DNA of 64,000 nt from Alphaproteobacteria bacterium (GTDB taxonomy: Bacteria; Pseudomonadota; Alphaproteobacteria; Bin95). This document shows positions 44,232-63,995 of the stretch, one piece after another. Where the stretch lies: the NCBI GenBank assembly GCA_964291285.2, contig OZ219788.1, positions 544,001-608,000 on the forward strand, read 5' to 3'. Each line of letters starts with the position of its first letter. Position 1 is the stretch's first letter. The position numbers and the translations under genes are program-made. Below the pieces are notes generated by a model. The model made no database searches and was not told the DNA's origin. It worked only from the letters and a program-made list of their open reading frames with translations.

Positions 44232-44313
44232 ACGACGCTCAACGCAAGCGCGGCGCGTGGAGGGTCAAGCCGTTGTTTCGGGAAGTAATCGAGGTCGACG
44301 GCGGGTGGCACTT

Positions 44314-45303
44314 ATGAGGAAGGACGAACTCATTCAGTCGCCGTCAGACGTTCGTCCTCATGTTGTGTTGCTAGGAGCAGGAGCCAGCCGCGCCGCGTTC
44401 CCGAATGGAGATAGGACAGGACACCCGCTTCCGCTGATGAATGATCTCGTAAGCGTAGTCGGTTTGGAATCAATTTTGGAACAAGCCGGCGAGAAATTCG
44501 GGGACGGTGGAAATTTTGAGAGTATATATTCAAAACTGGTTTCGAGTCCAAAGCATCGAAATTTGGTAAAAGAGATTGAAGACAGGATTAGAAGATACTT
44601 TTCCTCGCTCTCTATTCCATCATCAACGACGTTATACGATTGTCTTCTCCTTTCTCTCAGGAGAAAAGATGCTATATTCACATTCAATTGGGATCCATTC
44701 TTATTCGATGCTTATTTGAGAAACTATCACATTGCAACGCTCCCACAAATTTTCTTCTTGCACGGAAATGTTCGAATTGGGATATGCCCGAGGCATCCCG
44801 AGAGATGGGGTATGAGGAAAATACAGTGCCCTGATTGTTTGGAACCATTAAATGACGTGCCTCTGCTTTATCCAATTGAGCAGAAAGATTACTCGAAGAA
44901 TCTATATATTGAACGAAGCTGGGAGGCGGCCAAAGCCTTCTTTCGAGAGGCATTTGTTTTGACAATTTTCGGTTATAGTGCCCCTCATTCAGATACCGAG
45001 GCCGTACGTTTGCTCAACCAAGCGTGGATGGAGCGCAGTGATCGGAAAATTGAACATATTGAAATCATTGACAAAAAGCCATACGGCGTTTTATATGAGC
45101 ATTGGGGACTGTTTTTGCCAACCGGTCATTTGAATAAAATTGATCATTTGCACGAATCTTGGATAATGAGATATCCCCGACGTTCTGTCGAGGCACTAAT
45201 GCAACCAATTTTGTTTGGTGAACCGGTCGAGCATTTTCCGTTGATTAATTCAAATATATTGCATGAAGTGCGAACATCGATTCTTGATAATGCGACTTGG
45301 TAG
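44314..45303 (+). CDS. SIR2-like domain protein (AT-rich, horizontally acquired)
   Basis: LLGAGASR, TFNWD, LHGN, Zn-site CxxH...CxxC, IFGYS; visibly AT-rich compared with flanks. Confidence 0.75.
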   Translation: MRKDELIQSPSDVRPHVVLLGAGASRAAFPNGDRTGHPLPLMNDLVSVVGLESILEQAGEKFGDGGNFESIYSKLVSSPKHRNLVKEIEDRIRRYFSSLSIPSSTTLYDCLLLSLRRKDAIFTFNWDPFLFDAYLRNYHIATLPQIFFLHGNVRIGICPRHPERWGMRKIQCPDCLEPLNDVPLLYPIEQKDYSKNLYIERSWEAAKAFFREAFVLTIFGYSAPHSDTEAVRLLNQAWMERSDRKIEHIEIIDKKPYGVLYEHWGLFLPTGHLNKIDHLHESWIMRYPRRSVEALMQPILFGEPVEHFPLINSNILHEVRTSILDNATW

Positions 45304-45545
45304 AAATCCAACAGTTTGAGCGAGAAATAGGACTTGACACCCTAAAAAATTCCCGTTCCCGTGCCGGCTCCTTTGTTGAAAATTCGGTTGCCTGGGGGGC
45401 ATACAAGGCCAAACCACCGCCGACAGAGATATGACGTCGGCAGCCGCAAGCGGGAGAGGAGCATGACGGAACGCTCCCGGCCATGTGTCCTGCATCGGGA
45501 ACCCCGGTATCGCAGACCTCTATTCGCCCGCAACCGGGCCGCCTG

Positions 45546-45980
45546 CTATCTCCCGGCCTTCCGCTTGCGCCGCCGCTGCGCGCGGCGGGTTTCGCGGTCG
45601 AGGCCGTGGCGTTTCAGGAAGCGCTGCGCCGCATCGGGGCTGACCGACACGCCCTCGGCGGCGAGCGCGCGGCTCAGCCCGTACATGGAGATGTCCGGCT
45701 GCTCTTCCAGGATGCGGAGGATCCGCTCCCGCTGAGGCTCGGCCCCCGAGACGCTGCCGCCCCGCCGGTCGGCGCGCAGGTGGCCGCGCTCCCGGAAGCG
45801 CTGCACCCACAGGCTGACGCTGTTCGGCGACACGCCGATGCGCCGCGCCGCCGCGCTCCTGCTCATGCCCTCATGCAGCACGGCCGCCACCGCCAGCGCG
45901 CGCATGTCCTCGCTCACCGCCCGGCCGCGCTTCCGCCCCGGCAGCCCGCCCGCCGGCGCGTCCGTCGATCCGTTTCCCAT
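45546..45980 (-). CDS. IS630-type transposase N-terminal double-HTH protein, no DDE domain
   Basis: GRAVSEDMR...GMSRSAAARRIGVS...WVQRFRERG...PDISM..L....GVSVS...RFLKRHG; purine-rich RBS upstream. Confidence 0.75.
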   Translation of the reverse strand: MGNGSTDAPAGGLPGRKRGRAVSEDMRALAVAAVLHEGMSRSAAARRIGVSPNSVSLWVQRFRERGHLRADRRGGSVSGAEPQRERILRILEEQPDISMYGLSRALAAEGVSVSPDAAQRFLKRHGLDRETRRAQRRRKRKAGR

Positions 45981-46269
45981 TCCGTTTCTTCCTCTCTCCG
46001 GCCGCCGCCGGTTCCCGCCTAACTCCGGCGCGGCAGCGCCGCCCGGTCTTCCTCGAACTCGAACGCGGCGGCGCCGCGCGGTCCCGCCGGCAAACGCCGC
46101 AATTTCCGCCAATGTCGAATGAGGCAGGGCTGCGTCCGGGCGCACCTGTCGGGTGAGCCGGCTCCCGCCCGAATGGCCGGCGCGTTCCTTGCGTTGGGTC
46201 GCTGCGGAGCGGGCGCTCCGATAGCCCGTCAGGTCATGTCCTCACTCGGCTTGTTTTCATGGCTGTCAG

Positions 46270-46300
46270 GAATATATAGGGAACATACAGGGGAAGTCAA
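46270..46300 (-). promoter_or_regulatory. sigma70-type promoter overlapped by a LexA-box-like site
   Basis: Minus strand TTGACT-18 bp-TATATT; GTTC-N7-ATTC overlaps the -10 (alphaproteobacterial consensus GTTC-N7-GTTC). Confidence 0.55.
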
Positions 46301-46464
46301 GCCCGCGACGGCCGGCGGCCGGGGGCCGGCGAATCGCGGACGGCGTATTGTCCCGCCGGCCTTGCCCCCGGTTCGCCGCCCCGGCCCCCGGGAAGAAGCG
46401 TGAGAAGGAATCGGGGCGGACATTTTTTGGTTTGCAAGGATGGATTGACCGGTCCGGCCGCCGG

Positions 46465-46493
46465 TTGTAAACAAAACCATAAAATGTTTACAA
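46465..46493. promoter_or_regulatory. perfect 9-bp inverted repeat overlapping the nucleotidyltransferase start
   Basis: TTGTAAACA-N11-TGTTTACAA. Confidence 0.6.
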
Positions 46494-47584
46494 TGAAGGG
46501 GAACGCTTCCTTGCGGACCTTCCAGCGCCTGCCCGTCGCGATGCAGACGGTTTACGCGGAACTGGCCGACCGGGCCTGGACGGGCAGTTTCCGGGACATC
46601 ATGGACGCGGGAGGAACGCCGCACAAACGCATCGTCAAGGGGCGGGAGTACTGGTACTGGCATCCCGCGACGCGCAACGGGCGCCGCCCGCCGGCGCGGT
46701 ATCTCGGCCCGGACACGCCTGAAATCCGTCGCAGGACCGAGGCCCGGGTGGAACGCGCCGAAGCCCGGAGGGACCGGATCGGCATGGTCCGGGCCCTGCG
46801 CGCCGGGGGAATGCCCGCTCCTGACGGCCTCAGCGGCAACGTGCTGGCCGCCCTGGCCGATGCCGGCGCGTTCCGGCTCCGCGCCGTGGTCGTCGGGTCC
46901 CTCGCTTTCCAGTGCTACCCGCCCATGCTCGGATTCAGGGCGCCGGGCGCGGCAACGCGCACGGGCGATGTGGACATCGGCCAGTTCCCTGCCGTCTCGA
47001 TCGCCGTGGACGACCGGATCGAGCCGGACCTGCTGTCCGTTCTGAAGAGCGTCGATCCCGCATTCGAGGCCGTCCCGTCGCCCTTCGATCCGCGCCGGAC
47101 CCTGCGTTACGCGATCCGGGGCGGGAGCGAGGAGAGGTTCGTCGTGGACGTGCTCGCGCCCATGCGCGGTCCGCCCCGGGACCGGCCCGTGCACCTCCCC
47201 GCCCTGGAAGGCGACGCGCAGCCGCTCCGGTTCCTCGACTTCCTCCTGTACCGGGAGATCGAGGCGCTTGTGCTTCACGGGGCGGGAATCCCCGTCAGGG
47301 TGCCTGCCCCGGAGCGTTTCGCCGTCCACAAACTGCTCGTCGCCGCGCGCAGGCGTGCGGACACGACAGACCGCATCAAGGCGCGGAAGGACGTGGAACA
47401 GGCCGCGCTCCTTGTGCGGGTGCTGGCAAGCGACCGCCCGGAAGAACTCCGGGATGCCTGGGAGGAAATGCGCGCGCGCGGGCCGGCCTGGCGCAAGGCG
47501 GCGGACCGGGGGCGGAAGGACCTGCCGCCCGACGTGCAGGACCTCCTGCCATTGCCGGACGTCCCGCACGATTCGGGCCGGTGA
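46484..47584 (+). CDS. GSU2403-like nucleotidyltransferase-fold protein
   Basis: YWYW...RYLGPD N-terminus, VVGS-AF, RTGDVD, VPAPERFAVHKL, KARKDVEQA. Confidence 0.8.
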   Translation: MFTMKGNASLRTFQRLPVAMQTVYAELADRAWTGSFRDIMDAGGTPHKRIVKGREYWYWHPATRNGRRPPARYLGPDTPEIRRRTEARVERAEARRDRIGMVRALRAGGMPAPDGLSGNVLAALADAGAFRLRAVVVGSLAFQCYPPMLGFRAPGAATRTGDVDIGQFPAVSIAVDDRIEPDLLSVLKSVDPAFEAVPSPFDPRRTLRYAIRGGSEERFVVDVLAPMRGPPRDRPVHLPALEGDAQPLRFLDFLLYREIEALVLHGAGIPVRVPAPERFAVHKLLVAARRRADTTDRIKARKDVEQAALLVRVLASDRPEELRDAWEEMRARGPAWRKAADRGRKDLPPDVQDLLPLPDVPHDSGR

Positions 47585-51754: not shown

Positions 51755-52605
51755 TCAGCCGCCTCCGCCCGCCTGCATTCGGGCGCGGCGCAGGAATATT
51801 CCGGAATCGGCGCGCCATTGCTCATAACCTATGCGGCCGGAATCGGTCAGGCGGGCGATATTCCTGTCGAGGCAATCGGCGAGCGCGCGGTCCGAGGCCG
51901 CCAGGGCGAAGCCGCCGAGTTCGCGGCGGGAGTCGCGCGCGCCGATCGTAAGCGCGCCGCCGGACTCGAGGACGGCGTCAGCATTGCCGATCAGCCCTTG
52001 GGCGACCGCATCGACCTCGCCGGCGCGCAATGCTTCGAGTTGCGCGCCGTCCTCCTGGAAATAGACCACCTGCGGTATGTCCGCCGCGTCGCGGGGCGGC
52101 TCCAGCCGCCGCCGGCCTTCCAGAGCCGGCGAGGAGCCGGCCGCGGTGACGGTAAGGCGCTCGCCGGCCCCGGCTTCCAGCACCGCGCCGGAAGCGAGGT
52201 ACACCTTTGCGCCCGGCCGCAGCGCGCCGTCCGGCCCGATATAACCGGTCAATTGCAGCAGCCGCTCTTCACCGGTGGTGCCGGGCACCGCCGCAATACG
52301 GACATCCGGCGCGAAACCGCGATAGCCCGCGAACCGCCCGGCGTCCCCCGCGCGCACCAGCAATGTCTGGACGAAGGCGATATGCCCCGAGGTGAAGACG
52401 ACCGCCTCGCGGCCCTCAGCGTCGCGGGTGCGATCCTCGCGCACGGTGATGCCGCCGCCGACCAGGTCGTAGTCCGGCGAGGCGGCCTTGAGCCAGATGC
52501 CGGCGAATTCGCCGCCGATGGCGCGGCGGGAAAAGCGCGCGGCGCCCGTCGCCTCCAACGCGGTCAGCAGATCGGCCTCATAGCCGCGGTGTGACACGAA
52601 GCAAC
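51755..52605 (-). pseudogene. 5'-truncated periplasmic substrate-binding (SBP_bac_3-like) protein
   Basis: GYEADLL, GITVREDR, GTTGE, LRAGEVDA; no signal peptide, and the upstream part of the ORF runs into AT-rich non-coding DNA. Confidence 0.6.
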
Positions 52606-53647: not shown

Positions 53648-53977
53648 ATGACGAGGGACAGGGAGGACCGGCGGCGCCAGCGCTCGGTCACGTTGACCGA
53701 CAGCGAGTGGCGCCGGCTGAAGGCGCGGGCGGACGAGGCGGGCATGCCGGTGTCGCGCTTCATCGTCCACCGGCTTGCGGAGGAGGACCCGGGCCCGCCG
53801 CCGGACCGGGGGCCGGGCGGCCTGCCGGCGGCGGTTTGGCGGCGGGTGGCGCGCGAGCTGCTGCTGCTCGGCCGGCTGGAGGAGGAGAGGCTGGCGGCCG
53901 CGCGCCTCTCGGAGGAGCGCGACGTGCTCGCCGCCGAAGTGGAGACATGGCTCGCCCGGCAGGAGGAACTGGCGTGA
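53648..53977 (+). CDS. ribbon-helix-helix / MobC-like protein 1
   Basis: RSVTLTDSEWRRLKARADEAGMPVSRFIV. Confidence 0.72.
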   Translation: MTRDREDRRRQRSVTLTDSEWRRLKARADEAGMPVSRFIVHRLAEEDPGPPPDRGPGGLPAAVWRRVARELLLLGRLEEERLAAARLSEERDVLAAEVETWLARQEELA

Positions 53978-54002
53978 GCGCGCCATACCGCAGGAGGCCG
54001 TC

Positions 54003-54323
54003 ATGAAACAGGCGAAGTCGCGCTGCCTCTATCCGACGCCGGCGCAATGGTCGCGCATCCAGGCGCGGGCGAAGGCCGCGGGCATGAAGGTCTCGCCGTT
54101 CCTGGTGGCGTGCGCGCTGAAACGGGACGCCGGGGGGCGGGCGGGCGAGCCTCTGGTGCTGACGGCGGACGAACAGCGCGAGCTGTTCGACCGGGTGGCG
54201 CGGCTCGACCTTTACAGCCGGACCATGCTGGCGCCGCTGCCGGGCATGGACATGGCGGCGTTCGAGGCGGTCGCGTTGCTCTGCCGGCTGTTCCAGCCCG
54301 AAGACCCGGGAGAGGCGCCGTGA
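54003..54323 (+). CDS. ribbon-helix-helix / MobC-like protein 2
   Basis: RCLYPTPAQWSRIQARAKAAGMKVSPFLV; AGGAGG RBS. Confidence 0.72.
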   Translation: MKQAKSRCLYPTPAQWSRIQARAKAAGMKVSPFLVACALKRDAGGRAGEPLVLTADEQRELFDRVARLDLYSRTMLAPLPGMDMAAFEAVALLCRLFQPEDPGEAP

Positions 54324-54766
54324 GGCGCCCGCGCTCCGGGCCGAAGAAGATCGTGCGGTCCTTTTCCTGCACGGACCTGCAGCGGGAGGAGATCGGCAGG
54401 CGCGCGGCGGAGGCCGGCATGAACCTCTCGCCCTACGTCATCGAGTGCGGCCTGACGGTCGATCTCGACGCTGCCGAAGACGGGGCCGGCCCGTTGCCGT
54501 CGCTGGCCCTCGGCCGGGAGGAACAGCGCCGGCTGCACGACCGCGTCGCCGGGATCGCCGAACGGTGGCTGGGTCCGGACGCGCCCGATCCGGCGGGCAT
54601 GGCGGACCTGCCGGCGGTGCTCGGCGTGCTGCTCGAACGGCTCATGACCGACATGGTCGAGATGGGGCATGAAGAGCGGATGCGCCGTCTGCTGCTGGAT
54701 GCCTTCGGCGAGGCCCGGGGCTCGGAGCTCGCCCGCCGGTATGCGGACAAGGCGCGCCGCCGCTGA
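54320..54766 (+). CDS. ribbon-helix-helix / MobC-like protein 3
   Basis: RSFSCTDLQREEIGRRAAEAGMNLSPYVIECGL; GTGA overlap. Confidence 0.72.
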   Translation: MRRPRSGPKKIVRSFSCTDLQREEIGRRAAEAGMNLSPYVIECGLTVDLDAAEDGAGPLPSLALGREEQRRLHDRVAGIAERWLGPDAPDPAGMADLPAVLGVLLERLMTDMVEMGHEERMRRLLLDAFGEARGSELARRYADKARRR

Positions 54767-54968: not shown

Positions 54969-55388
54969 TCAGGCGGCAAGGTCCATCTCACAGGCTTCCG
55001 GGGGCGGCGCCGGCGGGCGGTTGTCGTTGGCCGCCCCGTCCGGCCTGGGGTCGAGGAAGTTGATGGAGCCGCGCGGGCCGACCACGATCTCGGTGGTGTA
55101 GCGGTCGTTGCCGTCGCGGTCCTGCCACTTGCGGGTGCGCAGCTTGCCGGTGACGTGCGCCTGGCGGCCCTTGGCGGCGTGCTTGCGCAGCATCTTCACC
55201 AGGCCGTCCTGGAAGACGGTGATCCTGTGCCACTCCGTCTGCCGGACATACTCGCCGGACTGCCTGTCCCGGTAGCCTTCGTTGGTGGCGATGCTGAAAT
55301 TGGCGACTTCGCCGCCGCCGGGGAGGCTGCGGAACTCGGGGTCCGCACCCAGATTGCCGATAAGGTCGACGCGATTCAGGCCGTTCAT
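54969..55388 (-). CDS. ssb: single-stranded DNA-binding protein (element-borne)
   Basis: LNRVDLIGNLGADPE, TEWHR, GKLRTRKWQD, YTTEIV; lacks the DDDIPF tail. Confidence 0.93.
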   Translation of the reverse strand: MNGLNRVDLIGNLGADPEFRSLPGGGEVANFSIATNEGYRDRQSGEYVRQTEWHRITVFQDGLVKMLRKHAAKGRQAHVTGKLRTRKWQDRDGNDRYTTEIVVGPRGSINFLDPRPDGAANDNRPPAPPPEACEMDLAA

Positions 55389-55434: not shown

Positions 55435-55459
55435 CCCCGAAAAACCCTTTCCCAAACTT
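55435..55459 (-). repeat. conserved upstream motif, copy 1
   Basis: CCCCGAAAAACCCTTTCCCAAACTT (+ strand), ~47 nt upstream of the ssb start. Confidence 0.8.
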
Positions 55460-55546: not shown

Positions 55547-56638
55547 TCACCAGGAGATCATCGTCGCCGTGGGAAAGTGGTCCGTGGCGATCTCCACGTC
55601 CTCGGGCGTGAGCTTCGCGTAGGCGAGCGCGGCGGCCACCTCGGCGATACTGTCCCAGGTACCGTGATCGACGCCCGTGCCGAGCTCGGTGACGGTATAT
55701 CGGGCGGGCAGGGGCGGAATGCCGCGCGAGGCAATGGCGCGCTGCCTGTCCCGGCATGGCCTGCATTCCAGCGTGCCGCGCGCGGGGGGCCGTTCGCCGC
55801 AACGCACGCACAGCCCTGCCGCCTGCCGCGCCGCGGAGTTGTGCCGGAAGCGTTCGAGCGCCTTGACGCGGCAATAGTCGCGGCAGCTTTCGCAATTGTC
55901 GTTATCCGGCAGGGCGTGGACCTTGCCGCAGCGCGTACAGACGCCCGGAGCGCGGCGTTCGGCGGTTCTGCGGCGCATGTGGTCCCGTGCGGATATCCGC
56001 CGCCGTTCGCCGCAGGACGCGCAGTAGCGCGAACCGGGCAGCGGGGGCTCCAGCTTGCAGCGGGCGCAGATGCCGGCGGCCACTCTGCGGGCGACCGTAG
56101 CGGCCTGGCTGGCCTTGCCGGTGTCGAGGCAGGGCCGGCAATGGAGCCTGCCGTCAGCTGCGGGATTCCGGCCGCAAGCCTTGCAGAGCCCGAGTGCGGC
56201 GCGCCGTTCCCCGCGCTTGCGGGTGTCTTTGTTCCGTTCGTCGAGACAGGCCTGGCATGTGGAGCGGTTCTCGGCCGGGGGGCGTTCGCCGCAATGGATG
56301 CAGAGCCCTTGCGAGGCGCGTTCGGCCCGGCGGGCGCGTCTGTTGTCCCGTGACTGCCGGTTGTGCCGCTCTGCGCAGGGTTTGCAGCGCAGGCTCCCGG
56401 GTAATGGAGCCGCGTTCCCGCAGTGCAGGCACAGTTGCTGGAGGGAGCGGCGCTGTCTCCGGCGCCGGCCGTCTTCCCTGTGGATGTCCAGGCAGGGGCG
56501 GCAGGCAGTGCGGCCTTCTTCGGGCGGGCGCTTGCCGCAGGCGCCGCAGAGACCCGCGGCCATGCGGGCATTGCGCTTGCGGGCGGCAGGGCCCGGCATA
56601 GTCACGATGTTCGGCGATGTGTCTGCGGGGCAGCGCAT
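55547..56638 (-). CDS. hypothetical protein with seven CxxC-x11-CxxC Arg-rich repeats
   Basis: Seven exact-spacing repeats, e.g. GLCGACGKRPPEEGRTACRPC, plus a distinct ~55-aa C-terminal domain. Confidence 0.85.
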   Translation of the reverse strand: MRCPADTSPNIVTMPGPAARKRNARMAAGLCGACGKRPPEEGRTACRPCLDIHREDGRRRRQRRSLQQLCLHCGNAAPLPGSLRCKPCAERHNRQSRDNRRARRAERASQGLCIHCGERPPAENRSTCQACLDERNKDTRKRGERRAALGLCKACGRNPAADGRLHCRPCLDTGKASQAATVARRVAAGICARCKLEPPLPGSRYCASCGERRRISARDHMRRRTAERRAPGVCTRCGKVHALPDNDNCESCRDYCRVKALERFRHNSAARQAAGLCVRCGERPPARGTLECRPCRDRQRAIASRGIPPLPARYTVTELGTGVDHGTWDSIAEVAAALAYAKLTPEDVEIATDHFPTATMISW

Positions 56639-56718
56639 GGCGGCGTCTCCCGGAGATGAACCGGAGGGAGGGAGCGGACCGGCGGCGCCCCCGGAGGAAC
56701 GCCGCCCGAAGGACCGGC

Positions 56719-57030
56719 TCAGAAGCGCTTGCGCCGGCCTTCCGCGAACAGGCCCGTTGCGAGATCCCCCCAGTACTGGATCCCGGAGCAGGTGATCTTC
56801 TCGCCCTTGCAGATCAGGATCTCGTTGCGCGCGGGGCGGAGCTCGCGGACGGTCTCCAGCGACAGGGTGAGCGGATGGCCCTTGCCGCCCGGCAGCCGGC
56901 GGATACCGCCGTCGATGCTGGTGCGGTAGCGCTCGATGACATAGTGCTCGTCCTGCAGGCCGCGGCCGAACACGTGCGTGAGGAACGTGTTCGCATCGGG
57001 GGGAAGGGCGGACGCATTGGTAGCGGGCAT
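56719..57030 (-). CDS. hypothetical protein
   Basis: AAAGGAG RBS before ATG; co-oriented with the neighbouring genes. Confidence 0.65.
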   Translation of the reverse strand: MPATNASALPPDANTFLTHVFGRGLQDEHYVIERYRTSIDGGIRRLPGGKGHPLTLSLETVRELRPARNEILICKGEKITCSGIQYWGDLATGLFAEGRRKRF

Positions 57031-57094: not shown

Positions 57095-57118
57095 CCCCGA
57101 AAACCCTTTCCCAAACTT
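57095..57118 (-). repeat. conserved upstream motif, copy 2
   Basis: CCCCGAAAACCCTTTCCCAAACTT, ~65 nt upstream of the 57030 start. Confidence 0.8.
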
Positions 57119-57570
57119 TCGGACGGGCGAGCCGGGCTCCGCCGTTCGCCGGTAAGGGCCGCCGGCTGCGGCGTCCGGTCGGCCGGCCGCGCGGGAGAGG
57201 ACCGCTGCGGTCCGGATGGGGCGCGGATCGGGACGCCGGAAACCGGTCCGCCGCCGTTTCGGCCGCCTCGGCGGCCGGCGCTCCGGGCTGCCGTACCGGG
57301 AACCGCCGGCGGGCCTTCCCCCGGAGTCGTGGACGCAGCGGCGGAAACGGCGCCGGCGGAGAACCGCGTCGGCGTCGTCGATTCGGTTACCGGGTTGCCG
57401 CTCGGCCTGCCCTGTGCGGTCGCGCGGGCGGCGAAGCGGGGCCGGGGGCGGGCATGAACGCCTCGTCCTTCGTCATCGGATGCGGGCCGGCGGCCGGCCC
57501 CGACCGGCCGGGAAGAGCGCGTGCGCCGCCTGCTGCCGGACGCTTTCGGCGAGCCCGCCGCCGCCGGGCC

Positions 57571-60500
57571 TCACACCGAGATGCCGCCGCCCGGGCCGAT
57601 ATCGCGGGAGAGGCCCTGCTGCCGGGCCGGGTCGCGGACGCGGAGATGGTTCTCGAGTTTCCGGCGGGCGCCGGGGTCCAGTTCGGGCCGGTCCAGCATC
57701 CGCTTCGCCTCCTCGACCACCTGCCTCAGCTCCGGAACGCTCAGGCGGGAGTTCTCGAGCCGGGGCGCGAACGCGGTCCAGGCCGCGTCGGTCTCCAGCG
57801 CGCGGGCGAGCCTTCCGCTGTCCCGCCCGATGTCGCCGCGCGCGCCTTCGATACGGTCCAGGTGGGGCGCGTAGCGCGTCTCCGCGAGGACCCGCTTCGC
57901 CCTCCCGCGGAGCCGTGCGGCTTCGTCCGCCCAGGCCCTGTAGCCCGTCCCCTCTTCCGTCACGCTCCGGCGCTGCTCCGCGGCGAGGTCCGACAGCTGC
58001 CGGCGCAGGTCCAGCGAGAAGCGGAGTTCCACGACGAGAGTCTCCACCTCCGCCTTCGCCGCCGCCGCCGCGTCATGTTCCGCGACCGCGTGCTCCAGCA
58101 GGGCGCGCGCCTCGGCGTCGAGGTCCGGCTCGGCCGCGAGCGCCCGCATGCTCCAGACGACCTCCTCATTGCCCTCGCGGTAGAAGACGGGCGTATCGGT
58201 CTCGCGCTCCACGATCTCCAGCCTCTCCAGCAGGCAGGCGGCATGGCGCCAGTCGAGCGCCACCGCGCCTTCCAGCGACTTGCGGTCCCGGGCAATGCCG
58301 TCGCGCAGCTCGGGCAGGGCGCCGGCATGGGCGAAGGAGCCGTCCGCGTCCGGAAGGCCCCGCGTCTCCGCCAGAAGGCCGCCGGCCTCCTCCCGCCAGG
58401 CCTCCAGCGCGGGAAGCACGGAATAGACCGCCCTGTCCTCCCCGGCCCCGTCGATCAGGCGCTCGCGCTTTTCCAAGCACTCCCGCAGCTTCGCGGCGAG
58501 CGGTTCGGCCGCGGCCTTCGCGGCGGCGACGGCGTCGCGCTCGGCGATCAGGTCCGACAGCTTCCGGCGGAGCGCCGCGTCGAGATGCGCCAACTCCAGC
58601 ACCCCGGCCATGCGCAGCAGGACCTCGTCGCGGCCCTCGGCATGGAACCAGTGCGCGCCGGCCTTATCGGCGCGCGCCTCCACCTTCTTCCACTCGTCCA
58701 GGACGGCGAACGCGGCATCGTCGGCGTCGAGGACGGCGTGCAGTTCCGCGCCCGCCCCGGCGATCCCGTCGCGGAGCGCGGGCGCGGCGTCCAGATGCGG
58801 ACGGTAGCGCTCCTCCTCGGCCGCGATCCCGTCCGCCTCCCTGCGAAGCCGGGACGCATGGTCCCGCCAGATGCGGTAGTCGCCGGCTCCCTCGCCGGCC
58901 GGATCGAACTGGATGCGCCGCACCGCGAGCGCCGTGCGCATCCGGTCATCCAGCCCGTCGAGAGTTGCGCGCGCCTTTCCCGCTGCCTCATGCGCCCCGG
59001 CAACCCGTTCCGCCTCGGCCGCGACGCCCGCCGCCACCCCGGGGGTCCGGCCCAATTCCGCGAGCCGCTCGACCGAGTCCGCGCATCCCTCCACATAGAA
59101 CGGGATCGTGCCCTGCCGGCGCGCCTCTTCCTCCAGCGCGCGCCAGGCCGAAAGCTCCGGCCACAGCGCCTCGCGCTCCGGGATCGGCAGGGGCGCCGGC
59201 GGGGCGATCTCCTCGCCCACCGCCTCCAGCGCCGTCATGGCCGCGCCCGCATGCGCCTCCAGCGCCTCGACAAGGTCCTCGCGGTTGTCGGTCAGCACCA
59301 CCGCATTGTCCCGCGCCCGGCTGATCCCGACATAGAACGCCGCCCGGTCCACGGGCAGGCCATGGCCGGAGTCCAGCACCACGATCGCATTGTCGCGGGT
59401 CGCGCCCTGCGCCGCATGCAGGGTCGCACTCCAGGCATGGTCCACATGGCGCAGCTGCGGATCGTCCCGGCGCAGGGACAGGGTACGGCCGTCCTCGACG
59501 TCGATCTTCACCAGCCGGGAGCCGATGGCGAGCACCTCCGCCTCGCCGCCATTGACGAGGCCGCGCTTCCTGTCGTTGCGCGTCCAGCGGATGCGGTCGC
59601 CCGCCTGGAGGCGGATCGGGCGCGTCTCGTAGGCCTCGTAGCGGTAGCGGACCGGCTTCGACGGGTCGATCCGGCGCGGGCGCCCGTCGGGATGGTGCAG
59701 CAGCACCCGGCCGCCCTCCGCTCCCGTCACCGTGCAGGCGTCGTCCGCCTTCACCCGGAACCGGTAGAGGTCGTTGTGGAACACCAGCACGTCGCCGGGG
59801 CGGTAGTTGGCGGTGTCGGCCTTCTGCGCACCCGTCAGCCCGAGCCCGACAAGCCGGTCGATCTCCAGAACCCGCCCGTGCAGCAGGCCTTCGTCGCGCA
59901 GCCCCTCGCGCACCGCCTCGTTGATGTCCTCCCGGAGCGCATGGGTCGGCGCCATGATCGCCGTCCGGGCGCGCGCCTCCGGGTGCAGCGAGAGCCAGAG
60001 CCGGGCGGCCGCCTCGCCGAGCTCGTCCGACTCCGCCTCGTGGACATTGCCGCCGAGCCGCTCCATGGCCTCGGCAGGCTCGCCCTCCCGGATGGCCGTT
60101 ACCGCCCGGTGCAGGTCGGGGTCGCGCTGGCGCAGCACCTCGTCCATGCGCGCCGTCGCCATGCCCGCCTGCTGGAGTTGCCGGAACGGCTGCCCGGCCT
60201 CCACCGAACGCAACTGCCCGGTGTCGCCGACCAGCGCCAGGCGCGCGATGCCGATCCGCTCCGATATCCGCATCAGCTGGCGCATCTGCGCCGAACTCAC
60301 CATTGAGGCCTCGTCCACCGCCAGCACCGCGCCGCCGAAGGCGAGCCGCGCCTCGGCAAGCCGTTCCGGCCCCGCGATCCGGTCGCCGATGTCCCGGTGG
60401 CGCGCGAGGAACCATTGCAGCGTCCGCGCCGGGATGCCCGCCTCCCGCTCCAGCGCCCGCACCGCCGCCATCGACGGCGCCAGCCCCACCACCTTGTGCT

Positions 60501-61905
60501 CTCCGGCAAGTCGCGCCGTCTCGCGCAGCATGACCGTCTTGCCCGTGCCCGCATGGCCCTGCACGCCCACCACCCTGTCCCGCGTGAGCAAAATCGTGCG
60601 CACCGCCTCGCGCTGGCCCTCCGTCAGCACCCCGGCGGCGAGCTCCCTCTCCACCGCCGCCCCGGCCGCCGCCGGCGCCCCCGCCCCGGCGCCCTCTCTC
60701 ATCCAGGCGATGTTGCCGCGTTCGGCCCGGAGCGCCCGGTCGGTCACGAACGCCCGGTCGGCGCCGCGCAACGCCGCCGCAACCAGATGCCCGTCGCGCC
60801 GCAGCTCCTCCACCGCCGCCTCGACCTCGCGCAGCGAATACCGCCCCGGCGCCTGGCCGAGCGCATGCGCCGCGATGTCGCCGGCCGCGAACACCGAAGA
60901 CCGCTCCTCAAGATGCGCCACCGCCCGCCAGACCGCTTCATGGACCGGCAGGAGGGAGCGCGCCTCCGCCCGCCTCTCCGCGCGCCGGCCGCGCCTTGCC
61001 CGCGCGGCCGCCTCCTTCGGCGGCAGGCCGGCCTCCCGGGCGCGGCGCCGCCAGATCCGCCGCAGCTCGTCCATGGCCGGCTCCGCCTTGCGCCGCCGCG
61101 TGTAGAGCGCCGCCTGCTGCGCCCGCGCCGCGCTGTAGGCCCCGCCCCGCCGGCGGATGTCCTCCAGTATGTCCCGACGCCGGGTCGAGAACGCGTCCCG
61201 CACCTCCCGGTCGTAGCCCTCCAGCTCGAACCCCGGCACCGGACCGATCATGGTCGGCACGATCCCGTAGCCGAGCGCCTCCAGACGCCGCGCCAGCTCG
61301 TTGCGGTAATGCGCCCCGATCAGTTTCTTGTTCCGGCGGATCGCCGTCGCCTCGATGCTTCGCCACTCGTCCGCGCCGTTCCGGGTCATGTTCGCCACCA
61401 CGCAGTGCGTGTGCAGCTGCGGGTCCAGATTGCGGCTCGCAAGGTGCCGAAAGGTCGCCGCGATCATGCCGTGCGCCTTCACCCGGGGCCGGCGCCGCGT
61501 CGCCGGGTCCCAGCCCCGCGTCTGCAGCAGCTCAGCCTCCACCCGGTCCAGCGCCGCGCGCACCGCCTCGTCATGCGCGCGGACCACCCGCCTGTCGCCG
61601 TGCAGCAGCGCCGCCAGCGATACCGACTTCGGCGCCGACAGCGTGATGTCCACCCCCGGACGGTGCTGGTGCTCGCCGTCCCGCAGGCGGCCCAGCCGGA
61701 TATCCGTGCCCGGCACGCAGCCCTGGAGGATCGCGTGGAACGTCTTCGGCGAGACATGCCGGCCGAGGCCCAGCGCACGCGCCGCCGCCCCGTGCCAGAA
61801 GCTCGCCCGGCGGTGCTCCGGGTCGCCCTTCGCGTAATAGCCGTCCTGCTCGAAATAGTGGACCGTCGAGCTTGCCGACCCGATGTCCGTCACCGTCGCG
61901 ACCAT
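57571..61905 (-). CDS. MOBF relaxase-helicase (TrwC/TraI-like)
   Basis: YFEQDGYY catalytic tyrosines, DITLSAPKSVS, H...DPQLHTH, Walker A GHAGTGKT, DEASM, GDTGQL, QGAT. Confidence 0.93.
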   Translation of the reverse strand: MVATVTDIGSASSTVHYFEQDGYYAKGDPEHRRASFWHGAAARALGLGRHVSPKTFHAILQGCVPGTDIRLGRLRDGEHQHRPGVDITLSAPKSVSLAALLHGDRRVVRAHDEAVRAALDRVEAELLQTRGWDPATRRRPRVKAHGMIAATFRHLASRNLDPQLHTHCVVANMTRNGADEWRSIEATAIRRNKKLIGAHYRNELARRLEALGYGIVPTMIGPVPGFELEGYDREVRDAFSTRRRDILEDIRRRGGAYSAARAQQAALYTRRRKAEPAMDELRRIWRRRAREAGLPPKEAAARARRGRRAERRAEARSLLPVHEAVWRAVAHLEERSSVFAAGDIAAHALGQAPGRYSLREVEAAVEELRRDGHLVAAALRGADRAFVTDRALRAERGNIAWMREGAGAGAPAAAGAAVERELAAGVLTEGQREAVRTILLTRDRVVGVQGHAGTGKTVMLRETARLAGEHKVVGLAPSMAAVRALEREAGIPARTLQWFLARHRDIGDRIAGPERLAEARLAFGGAVLAVDEASMVSSAQMRQLMRISERIGIARLALVGDTGQLRSVEAGQPFRQLQQAGMATARMDEVLRQRDPDLHRAVTAIREGEPAEAMERLGGNVHEAESDELGEAAARLWLSLHPEARARTAIMAPTHALREDINEAVREGLRDEGLLHGRVLEIDRLVGLGLTGAQKADTANYRPGDVLVFHNDLYRFRVKADDACTVTGAEGGRVLLHHPDGRPRRIDPSKPVRYRYEAYETRPIRLQAGDRIRWTRNDRKRGLVNGGEAEVLAIGSRLVKIDVEDGRTLSLRRDDPQLRHVDHAWSATLHAAQGATRDNAIVVLDSGHGLPVDRAAFYVGISRARDNAVVLTDNREDLVEALEAHAGAAMTALEAVGEEIAPPAPLPIPEREALWPELSAWRALEEEARRQGTIPFYVEGCADSVERLAELGRTPGVAAGVAAEAERVAGAHEAAGKARATLDGLDDRMRTALAVRRIQFDPAGEGAGDYRIWRDHASRLRREADGIAAEEERYRPHLDAAPALRDGIAGAGAELHAVLDADDAAFAVLDEWKKVEARADKAGAHWFHAEGRDEVLLRMAGVLELAHLDAALRRKLSDLIAERDAVAAAKAAAEPLAAKLRECLEKRERLIDGAGEDRAVYSVLPALEAWREEAGGLLAETRGLPDADGSFAHAGALPELRDGIARDRKSLEGAVALDWRHAACLLERLEIVERETDTPVFYREGNEEVVWSMRALAAEPDLDAEARALLEHAVAEHDAAAAAKAEVETLVVELRFSLDLRRQLSDLAAEQRRSVTEEGTGYRAWADEAARLRGRAKRVLAETRYAPHLDRIEGARGDIGRDSGRLARALETDAAWTAFAPRLENSRLSVPELRQVVEEAKRMLDRPELDPGARRKLENHLRVRDPARQQGLSRDIGPGGGISV

Positions 61906-62543: not shown

Positions 62544-63995
62544 GATCGTGTCCCGAGCCGTGGTGTAAGAGCCTGGCGTCCGTAGCGGTGTCCGGCGGGT
62601 AGGGCCGGTAGGCTCAGGCTGCCACGGCGGGCAGCTTGACGGTTGCATTGTCGCTCACGGGAGCGATGGATTCCAGCGTTACGTATCTGGCTCTCTGGAC
62701 GGCCCATTCGTCGTTCTGCTCGAGCAGGATGGCACCGATCAGGCGGGTGATGGCGTTCTCGTTGGGGAAGATGCCGACGGTGTTGGTGCGCCGCTTGATC
62801 TCGCCATGGAGGCGTTCGAGCGGGTTTGTGGAGTGCAGCTTGGCGCGATGCGCGGCCGGGAAGGTCATGTAGGCGAGAACATCGTGCTCGGCCTCGTCCA
62901 TGATGGCGGCGAGCTTCGGCGCCTTGGGCCTGAGCTGGTCGGCGACCTGGCGCCACTGGGCGGAGGCGCTGTCTGCATCCTCCTGGGCGAAGGCGGTGGT
63001 GACGAAGGCGGAGACGACGCGCCGGCCCTGCTTGCCGGCATGGGCGAGCAGGTTGCGCATGAAATGCACGCGGCATCTCTGCCATGTGGCGCCGAGGATG
63101 CGGGTCGCGGCGGCCTTCAGGCCCTTGTGGTCGTCGGAGATCACCAGCTTGACGCCGCGCAGGCCGCGCCGGGCGAGCGAGCGCAGGAAGTCGGTCCAGA
63201 AGGTCTCGGCCTCGGACGCGCCGATCGCCATGCCGAGCACCTCGCGCCGGCCCTGGTCGTTGACCGCCACCGCGATGGTGACCGCGACCGAGACGATGCG
63301 CCCGGCCTCGCGCATCTTCACATAGGTCGCGTCCAGCCACAGATACGGCCAGTCGCCCTCCAGCGGCCGGTCGAGGAAGTCGCGGATCTTGTCGTCGATC
63401 TCGCCGCACAGCCTGGACACCTGGCTCTTGGAGATGCCCGACATGCCCATCGCCTGCACCAGGTCGTCGACCGAGCGGGTGGATACGCCCTTGATGTAGG
63501 CCTCCTGGATCACCGCCGTCAGCGCCTTCTCCGCCATCCGCCGCGGCTCAAGGAAGCCCGGGAAGTAGCTCCCCTTGCGCAGCTTCGGGATCTTCAGCTC
63601 GACCGTGCCGGCGCGCGTCTCCCAGACCCGGTCGCGGTAGCCGTTGCGGTGCGTGATCCGGTCCGGCGAACGCTCGCCGTGCCCGGCGCCCGCAAGGCCC
63701 TCAACCTCAAGCGCCATCAGACGCGCGGCCGTGAACCCGATCATCTCGCGAAGCAGATCGGCGTCGGAACTCTTCTCCAACAGCGCCCGCAGGGTCATCA
63801 TGTCGGTGGTGGTCATCGTGGTACTCCTCCGGTCGGATGGACTGTGGAAGCCCAACCCTACCGGCACCGCGATGGCCATCCGCTATGGATAAGTGGCCCG
63901 CCGCCGCCAGACTCCAGACGGTCGCGGCGGCGGGCCACTTACCCACAGCTACCGATGGTGGCTCCAGCTCCTACACCACGCCTGGGGGCACGACC
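62544..63995 (-). mobile_element. complete IS256-family element
   Basis: 29-bp imperfect IR GATCGTGTCCCGAGCCGTGGTGTAAGAGC / GCTCCTACACCACGCCTGGGGGCACGACC; flank GTTCCGGG at 62536-62543 is repeated as GTTCC at 63996-64000 (TSD). Confidence 0.92.
62614..63816 (-). CDS. IS256-family transposase
   Basis: [46 protein letters not shown]. Confidence 0.95.

Follow-up and report, generated by a model that had tools for sequence, protein, structure and literature searches.

Predicted treble-clef-like units in a tandem array encoded on a bacterial mobile island, and the linked small gene orf103

Introduction

Long tandem arrays of zinc fingers are regarded as mainly eukaryotic. The C2H2 poly-zinc-finger proteins, with Cys2His2 ligands and a period of about 28 residues, and the TALEs resemble the array protein described here in being tandem arrays of variable unit number that grow by duplication; the array protein differs in its Cys4 ligands, its periods of 39–47 residues, a unit order that is fixed in the larger of its two subfamilies, and the fact that no hypervariable positions were detected in it. 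Treble-clef fingers (GATA, nuclear receptor, DksA/TraR C4 and LIM) are similar to its unit in the knuckle, in the ligands at the helix start and in the basic helix that comes next. As defined in PMC4999995, a CxxCG knuckle gives two ligands of a treble clef and the first turn of a helix two more; the multiple forms described in that source are tandem pairs (LIM, nuclear receptor) and the knotted triple of Rds3p, whereas the array has 3–8 single units set on helices of 20–50 residues.

The surroundings of the array gene resemble a second kind of described system, the establishment regulons. In those of pKM101 (CUP, with ArdK/ArdR), p576 (with a repressor) and F/ColIb (ssb-psiB-ard), as in the present cassette, small genes including ssb share a common upstream sequence on an element with a relaxase (PMC6294495, PMC11541004). 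SSBs are described as markers of leading regions (PMC11541004), and Toprim primases of mobile elements as priming transferred DNA (PMC5512222). The cassette differs in that its shared word spans about 25 bases, not over 400 as reported in PMC6294495. In addition, no known anti-defence gene was recognized in it, and the array gene and orf103 are without known homologue.

Here the array gene was analyzed within a window of 64,000 nucleotides (the whole stretch of DNA under study) from an alphaproteobacterial genome. The context added to an initial annotation of the gene is its partner orf103, ssb, the shared upstream word and the surrounding mobile island. The analysis also ties the gene more tightly to orf103, extends the known range beyond Alphaproteobacteria, divides the arrays into two classes and puts the idea of a recognition code to a test. 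The array, its end domain and orf103 belong to no named family; the fold group of the unit and the kind of regulon are already known. The reading put forward, which is given an even chance of being correct, is that the array protein belongs to an early, establishment-type cassette, in which it forms a scaffold that binds several turns of nucleic acid; it would act on DNA of the island itself, and the end domain would serve for docking. If this is true, the array gene and orf103 form a new two-gene module in the poorly known toolkit for the survival and establishment of mobile DNA after transfer.

The array gene and its repeat pattern

The array gene (55547..56638, minus strand) encodes 363 aa, with a GC3 of 0.83 and a GGAG ribosome-binding site 5' of the ATG. 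A motif scan and an AlphaFold2 model placed seven CxxC-x11-CxxC units in residues 31–295 (55754..56548, minus strand), with Arg-rich helices between them. The motifs start at residues 31, 70, 113, 152, 191, 234 and 277 (periods of 39, 43, 39, 39, 43 and 43) and contain 28 of the 30 Cys of the protein; when the protein was shuffled from 12 residues before the first motif, more than two motifs arose in none of 100,000 shuffles. The repeat region has a net charge of +41 and the end domain of −6. The seven-repeat, 28-Cys pattern and the very basic linkers followed by an acidic C-terminal domain, both noted in the initial annotation, were recovered in full, while the 11-residue spacer that it called invariant holds in the window's subfamily and not in the wider family, where the 208 motifs of alignment A1 have spacers of 11 (128 motifs), 10 (46), 9 (33) or 12 (one) residues.

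The array gene is a real gene under purifying selection. Its dN/dS against the closest ortholog (locus L011) is 0.46, and values of 0.21–0.46 were obtained in all 15 array-gene pairs; none of the pairs tested exceeded 1. Calculated by part for the same pairs, dN/dS ranged from 0.23 to 0.73 in the helices and from 0.15 to 0.38 in the knuckles, the helices being under weaker constraint in 14 of the 15. Contigs from a public sequencing run, which may itself be the source of the window, span the gene without differences.

Structure and relatives of the unit

In the AlphaFold2 model, which was built with 41 sequences (mean pLDDT 88, pTM 0.45), the single units are predicted with confidence and the overall shape of the protein is uncertain. 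Helices are predicted to begin at residues 47, 86, 129, 168, 207, 250 and 293, inside each second CxxC, and a Gly follows the first CxxC (CxxCG knuckle) in 98% of the 128 x11 units. As modeled, the array unit carries two marks of the treble clef, the CxxCG knuckle and a second ligand pair at the helix N-terminus, so that the “knuckles” of the initial annotation stand as a Cys pattern and the unit is better described as treble-clef-like, the second CxxC starting a helix, than as a bare knuckle. It differs from known treble clefs in a spacer of only 9–11 residues; a beta-hairpin between knuckle and helix is not clear in the model, to whose spacers DSSP assigned only isolated bridges. The Cys pattern and the model suggest that each CxxC-x11-CxxC would bind one zinc and fold into a small treble-clef-like cap, from which a long Arg-rich helix starts in a set orientation. 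Across the family, short periods are most often 39, 43 or 47 residues, and the longer periods of 67 and 69 include a helix break without Cys. As the short periods differ by about one helical turn, successive caps would be held in phase along an elongated chain with the high positive charge given above.

Among solved structures, ribosomal eL37 comes closest to the unit; the two-unit repeat profile matched it with an E value of 2e-4. Its zinc finger has the identical CxxC-x11-CxxC spacing, a preceding GL and a basic tail, but stands alone in a ribosomal protein of roughly 90 aa, unlike the seven units of a 363-aa protein encoded on a mobile island, and the array unit runs straight into its helix, which the eL37 finger does not; the likeness may have come about through convergence. 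Two-unit segments also gave weak PHROG matches to a DksA-like zinc finger (10 of 18), a “DNA binding protein” (6 of 18) and an HNH family (5 of 18), and in two of 53 homologs an array-type unit lies N-terminal to an HNH-like domain (P0051, PHROG E 0.029; P0037, where a motif suggests the domain). The likenesses to eL37, the PHROG families and HNH proteins are all weak, and Cys/Arg composition can produce matches of this kind. The array-type nucleic-acid binder proposed in the initial annotation is nevertheless the best reading of the repeat-region charge, the treble-clef-like units, the eL37 match, the HNH-linked units and the neighboring ssb; binding itself is what we infer from them.

Repeated Cys4 units with basic helices are also found in phage multi-zinc-ribbon proteins (Pfam DZR_2/DZR, BFVD entries such as A0A8S5SE92, and Atlas viral clusters). 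DZR_2 was matched by 34 of 41 members of the array family (best E 2e-6), the query itself giving no DZR hit, and matches were obtained in BFVD (E 1e-4 to 5e-4) and to Atlas viral clusters (scores 0.93–0.94). These phage proteins, themselves uncharacterized, show no sign of the end domain or of an orf103 partner.

Three other assignments were rejected. A C2H2 poly-zinc finger does not fit ligands that are all Cys, periods of 39–43 and the absence of a Pfam hit. DksA/TraR proteins have a 17-residue spacer and an acidic coiled-coil tip, whereas spacers here are 9–12 residues and the helices basic; PF01258 gave no hit in the query or the 41 members, and the matches to PHROG_54 were weak only. For an HNH/EndoVII homing endonuclease, the query has no nuclease domain and its end domain no invariant His, Asn or acidic residue.

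The acidic end domain

Model and alignment delimit an acidic C-terminal domain at about residues 311–363 (55550..55708, minus strand) with a beta-beta-alpha-beta-alpha order. It is acidic in all 28 aligned members (net −3 to −10), and its only invariant columns are P, V, L and V, the lack of an invariant polar residue arguing against an enzyme. A profile search returned 231 representatives (E≤0.001, clustered at 50% identity). As part of the proposed scaffold, the domain may dock a protein partner. A helix-turn-helix of the NUMOD1/IENR1 type, considered as a lead, was rejected: the 28 members gave no such Pfam hit at E≤5, the domain is acidic, and in place of the second (recognition) helix the model shows a 3-residue turn and then a strand.

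A small domain that is acidic in all aligned members would also suit a counter-defence factor, in which the basic array attaches to incoming DNA while the end domain inhibits a host enzyme or serves as a decoy for it; this alternative is judged improbable, and the gene neighborhood bears on it further below.

Distribution of the family and the two array classes

Searches of Pfam, NCBIfam and PADLOC returned nothing for the query, and its best PHROGs match had an E value of only 0.28, in agreement with the earlier statement that no characterized family could be recognized; no description of the array family, the end domain or orf103 appeared among the papers listed by the literature searches. 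A first search returned 53 homologs, and a two-unit profile extended the repeat to at least 400 clustered proteins. The genome of the window itself carries 25 paralogs that share the end domain. Repeat-number variation among homologs, a check proposed at the outset, was evident as 3–8 units among 143 proteins with the end domain. Of 16 other genomes of the genus, 13 contain the array family; among genomes from other genera of the same taxonomic family the count was one of eight, through one weak match (E 8e-4), and among those from other families one of 16. The end domain was found in five of 300 genomes drawn from the class. By record title, loci anchored on orf103 and containing the array gene come from Alphaproteobacteria, Nitrospinota, Halioglobus, Candidatus Poribacteria and Candidatus Poriferihabitaceae, all of them metagenome-assembled, with binning errors possible on short contigs. 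A treble-clef-like unit, as predicted, is found here in arrays of 3–8 across a bacterial family of this size, tied to orf103, in several phyla and on mobile islands.

Two classes of array were distinguished: A-type, which includes the query, and B-type, the larger subfamily. A-type arrays have 4–8 units in varied order (e.g. periods of 39, 39, 43, 43 or of 43, 43, 42, 43, 39, 43, 43) and include a recent two-unit duplication with 92% DNA identity. B-type arrays have a constant core of periods 69, 39 and 44–47; in 88 B-type proteins of one architecture (mean identity 67%), unit order and unit-specific residues are fixed, and of 163 helix/linker columns 80 reach a conservation of 80% or more, with 31 Arg, 18 Ala, 6 Tyr, 4 Glu, 3 Asp and 3 Ser among them. 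Judging from these alignments, B-type units are not interchangeable. In the scaffold reading, the array would wrap tens of bases, mainly by Arg–phosphate contacts with the help of a few conserved Tyr, and its specificity would be low or fixed rather than programmable. The conserved residues specific to each B-type unit fit a specific target equally well.

A rather unlikely alternative is that the array is a sequence-specific reader with its helices in the major groove of a long site, in the simplest case the shared upstream word, by which it would switch the cassette on or off. The modular make-up of the A-type arrays with their recent duplication, the signature kept by each B-type unit and the array-type units that precede HNH-like domains would all suit such a reader. 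Against it are the conserved helix columns, which are mostly Arg and Ala, the dN/dS values, and a comparison of three A-type islands with one common word, in which the arrays are 41–58% identical, orf103 74–85% and SSB 76–92%; two of these three array pairs are no closer to each other than A-type is to B-type (41–43%). Should the word be read by a protein of the island, orf103 tracks it better than the array does. The initial annotation had further supposed that the variable residues could encode specificity; taken as a swappable code, this is not supported by the fixed B-type order, the absence of dN/dS values above 1 and the divergence of the arrays under a constant word. That the array unit (a zinc cap with a 20–24-residue helix) is a new modular sequence-reading repeat, with A-type arrays retargeted by unit exchange and reading island or host sites together with orf103, is a long shot. 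If true, bacteria would possess a natural, programmable scaffold for binding nucleic acids that has no relation to C2H2 fingers, TALEs or PPR proteins, and a new scaffold for engineered nucleic-acid recognition would be at hand; the natural variants of 4–8 units make an in vitro test cheap.

Partner genes of the cassette

The gene orf103 (56719..57030, minus strand), encoding a basic protein of 103 aa, adjoins the array gene in all 25 paralogs of the genome. In the best 80 of 244 orf103 relatives, the set used for the counts out of 80 below, the end domain lies within 3 kb of orf103 in 73 of 80 loci. The ssb gene (54969..55388, minus strand; PF00436, E 8e-29) is present in 23 of the 25 paralog loci and in 57 of these 80 other loci, making orf103 the tightest companion of the array gene and ssb the next. 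Further neighbors in the best 80 loci of 244 are genes for YAcAr-SLOG (33 loci), integrase (25), Toprim (22) and TrwC (17), and AlkB-like and DUF4326 genes also occur near orf103. The SSB of the window is without the tail that is present in B-type SSBs, and an 85-aa cassette protein at L001:12713-12967 ends in an acidic tail that we take to be SSB-like. In five islands (L052-L055 and L057), a single orf103 is flanked by two different array genes.

This linkage is consistent with a scaffold that would be co-expressed with orf103 and SSB, often together with a Toprim primase-like gene, and would act on excised or transferred island DNA, possibly by coating or protecting it or by staging second-strand synthesis. 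In orf103, His19, Asp27, Tyr30, Glu33, Arg34, Glu70, Cys74 and Gln85 are near-invariant; it could be the catalytic or the word-reading member of the pair.

The neighborhood also has features in keeping with the counter-defence alternative, genes of no assigned function near ssb on conjugative elements being described as often anti-defence (PMC11541004), and SLOG, AlkB-like and DUF4326 genes being among the neighbors found here. In a narrower form of that alternative, the array protein would be the antitoxin of orf103. Many type II toxins are basic and of about 100 aa, as is orf103, but a type II toxin-antitoxin pair is a fixed, tightly coupled two-gene operon. Here gene order is variable (15 loci against 58 among the 73), ssb sits between orf103 and the array gene in L001, and the array gene is broken or missing beside an intact orf103 in 13 of the best 80 loci of 244, where copies elsewhere in the same genome may complement; this last count also weighs against the scaffold reading.

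The shared upstream word and the leaders

In the window's subfamily, cassette genes are headed by a word of about 25 bases. A motif matrix located it in the window ahead of orf103 (57095..57118, minus strand) and ahead of ssb (55435..55459, minus strand); the array gene of the window has no word of its own and sits behind orf103, from which it is separated by a GC-rich hairpin (56681..56706, minus strand; predicted fold only). All 30 hits above 24 bits in the genome, five of which had served to train the matrix, sit 53–87 bases ahead of a cassette gene (orf103 in nine cases, ssb in nine, the array gene in eight and a 180-aa gene in four), with none in the reversed genome; at 17 bits, 41 hits were obtained against 10 in the control. 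Among the best 80 of 244 relatives, 21 loci have A-type arrays, and 19 of these carry this word A, which is absent from all of the other 59. The co-variation of word and array class favors the array as a reader of the word but is confounded by linkage. That elements with shared upstream sequences possess dedicated regulators, as described in PMC6294495, is a further point in favor of such a reader.

In non-A islands (leaders of L003, L017, L025, L029 and L034), the ribosome-binding site of most cassette genes is immediately preceded by a purine-rich tract and by a hairpin whose loop is often of the GAGA type. By analogy with arginine-rich-motif antiterminators, the Arg-rich helices could bind such leader hairpins, the array protein then being an RNA-binding regulator of translation or read-through, a reading that we hold to be distinctly improbable. 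Hairpins, often with purine-rich loops, are predicted before cassette genes, with z values of +0.2 to −4.5 for 17 non-A leaders; the stem in the leader of orf103 is kept in 21 non-A loci, and eL37, the nearest solved relative by profile match, binds rRNA. However, both-sided change was found in only one of the 13 predicted pairs of that stem, A-type leaders do not exceed their shuffles in stability (z between +1.8 and −2.3), and five to eight units would exceed by far what one hairpin needs.

The mobile island

On the minus strand of the window, the order is TrwC relaxase, orf103, array gene and ssb, with three NikA-like genes facing them. The TrwC/MOBF relaxase-helicase (57571..61905, minus strand) was identified by PF08751 (E 1.6e-74) and AAA_30 (E 1.2e-47), and the three NikA-like ribbon-helix-helix genes (53648..54766, plus strand) by PF21983 (E 8.6e-6, 1.5e-6 and 1.6e-5, one of the three being over the cut-off). 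These last are ordinary candidates for a regulator, which weighs against the array as the reader of the word. A remnant of the third ribbon-helix-helix gene at 57443-57556, between relaxase and orf103, suggests that the cassette entered with a duplication. In the orf103-anchored loci (best 80 of 244), the cassette lies downstream or upstream of the relaxase, or is divergent from or convergent with it.

Homology to three other copies of the island begins at a 10-base core (52583..52592, plus strand), where the island cuts a gene that we take to be solute-binding-protein-like (51755..52585, minus strand). A probable N-terminal half of this gene, with a signal peptide, is found on another contig, from G000:C1:206748 onward, next to the integrase-side end of an island, and the split halves point to a rearrangement between island copies or to an assembly join. 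One copy (C1:188385-201970) is whole; it has a direct repeat that lies within an insertion sequence, and its far end carries two tyrosine integrases. Together, the sharp shared end, the whole integrase-bearing copy and the split gene halves identify the islands as integrative mobilizable islands.

The integrase-side ends (C1:201944-201968, C1:206732-206757 and about 19 similar ones) consist of a GCACC-N(3-5)-GGTGCG hairpin, 4–9 variable bases and usually GTGT, a pattern with 38 hits in the genome against seven in the reversed genome. The hairpin arms equal those of the IR2 hairpin at the R388 nick site as given in PMC4176350. Attachment site and transfer origin may coincide and, if so, the cassette would be oriented like leading-region genes; the variable bases after the hairpin argue against a plain nick site, and oriT was not located in the island.

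Two further stretches of the window have features of their own. Beyond the relaxase lies a 421-aa transposase-like gene (62614-63879, minus strand), presumably of IS256 type, which has more than 20 near-identical copies in the genome. At 44257-47584, a stretch of lower GC contains a 348-aa gene without a Pfam hit, whose start we take to be SIR2-like, together with a transposase HTH remnant and an NTP_transf_8 nucleotidyltransferase, and is possibly a defence locus.
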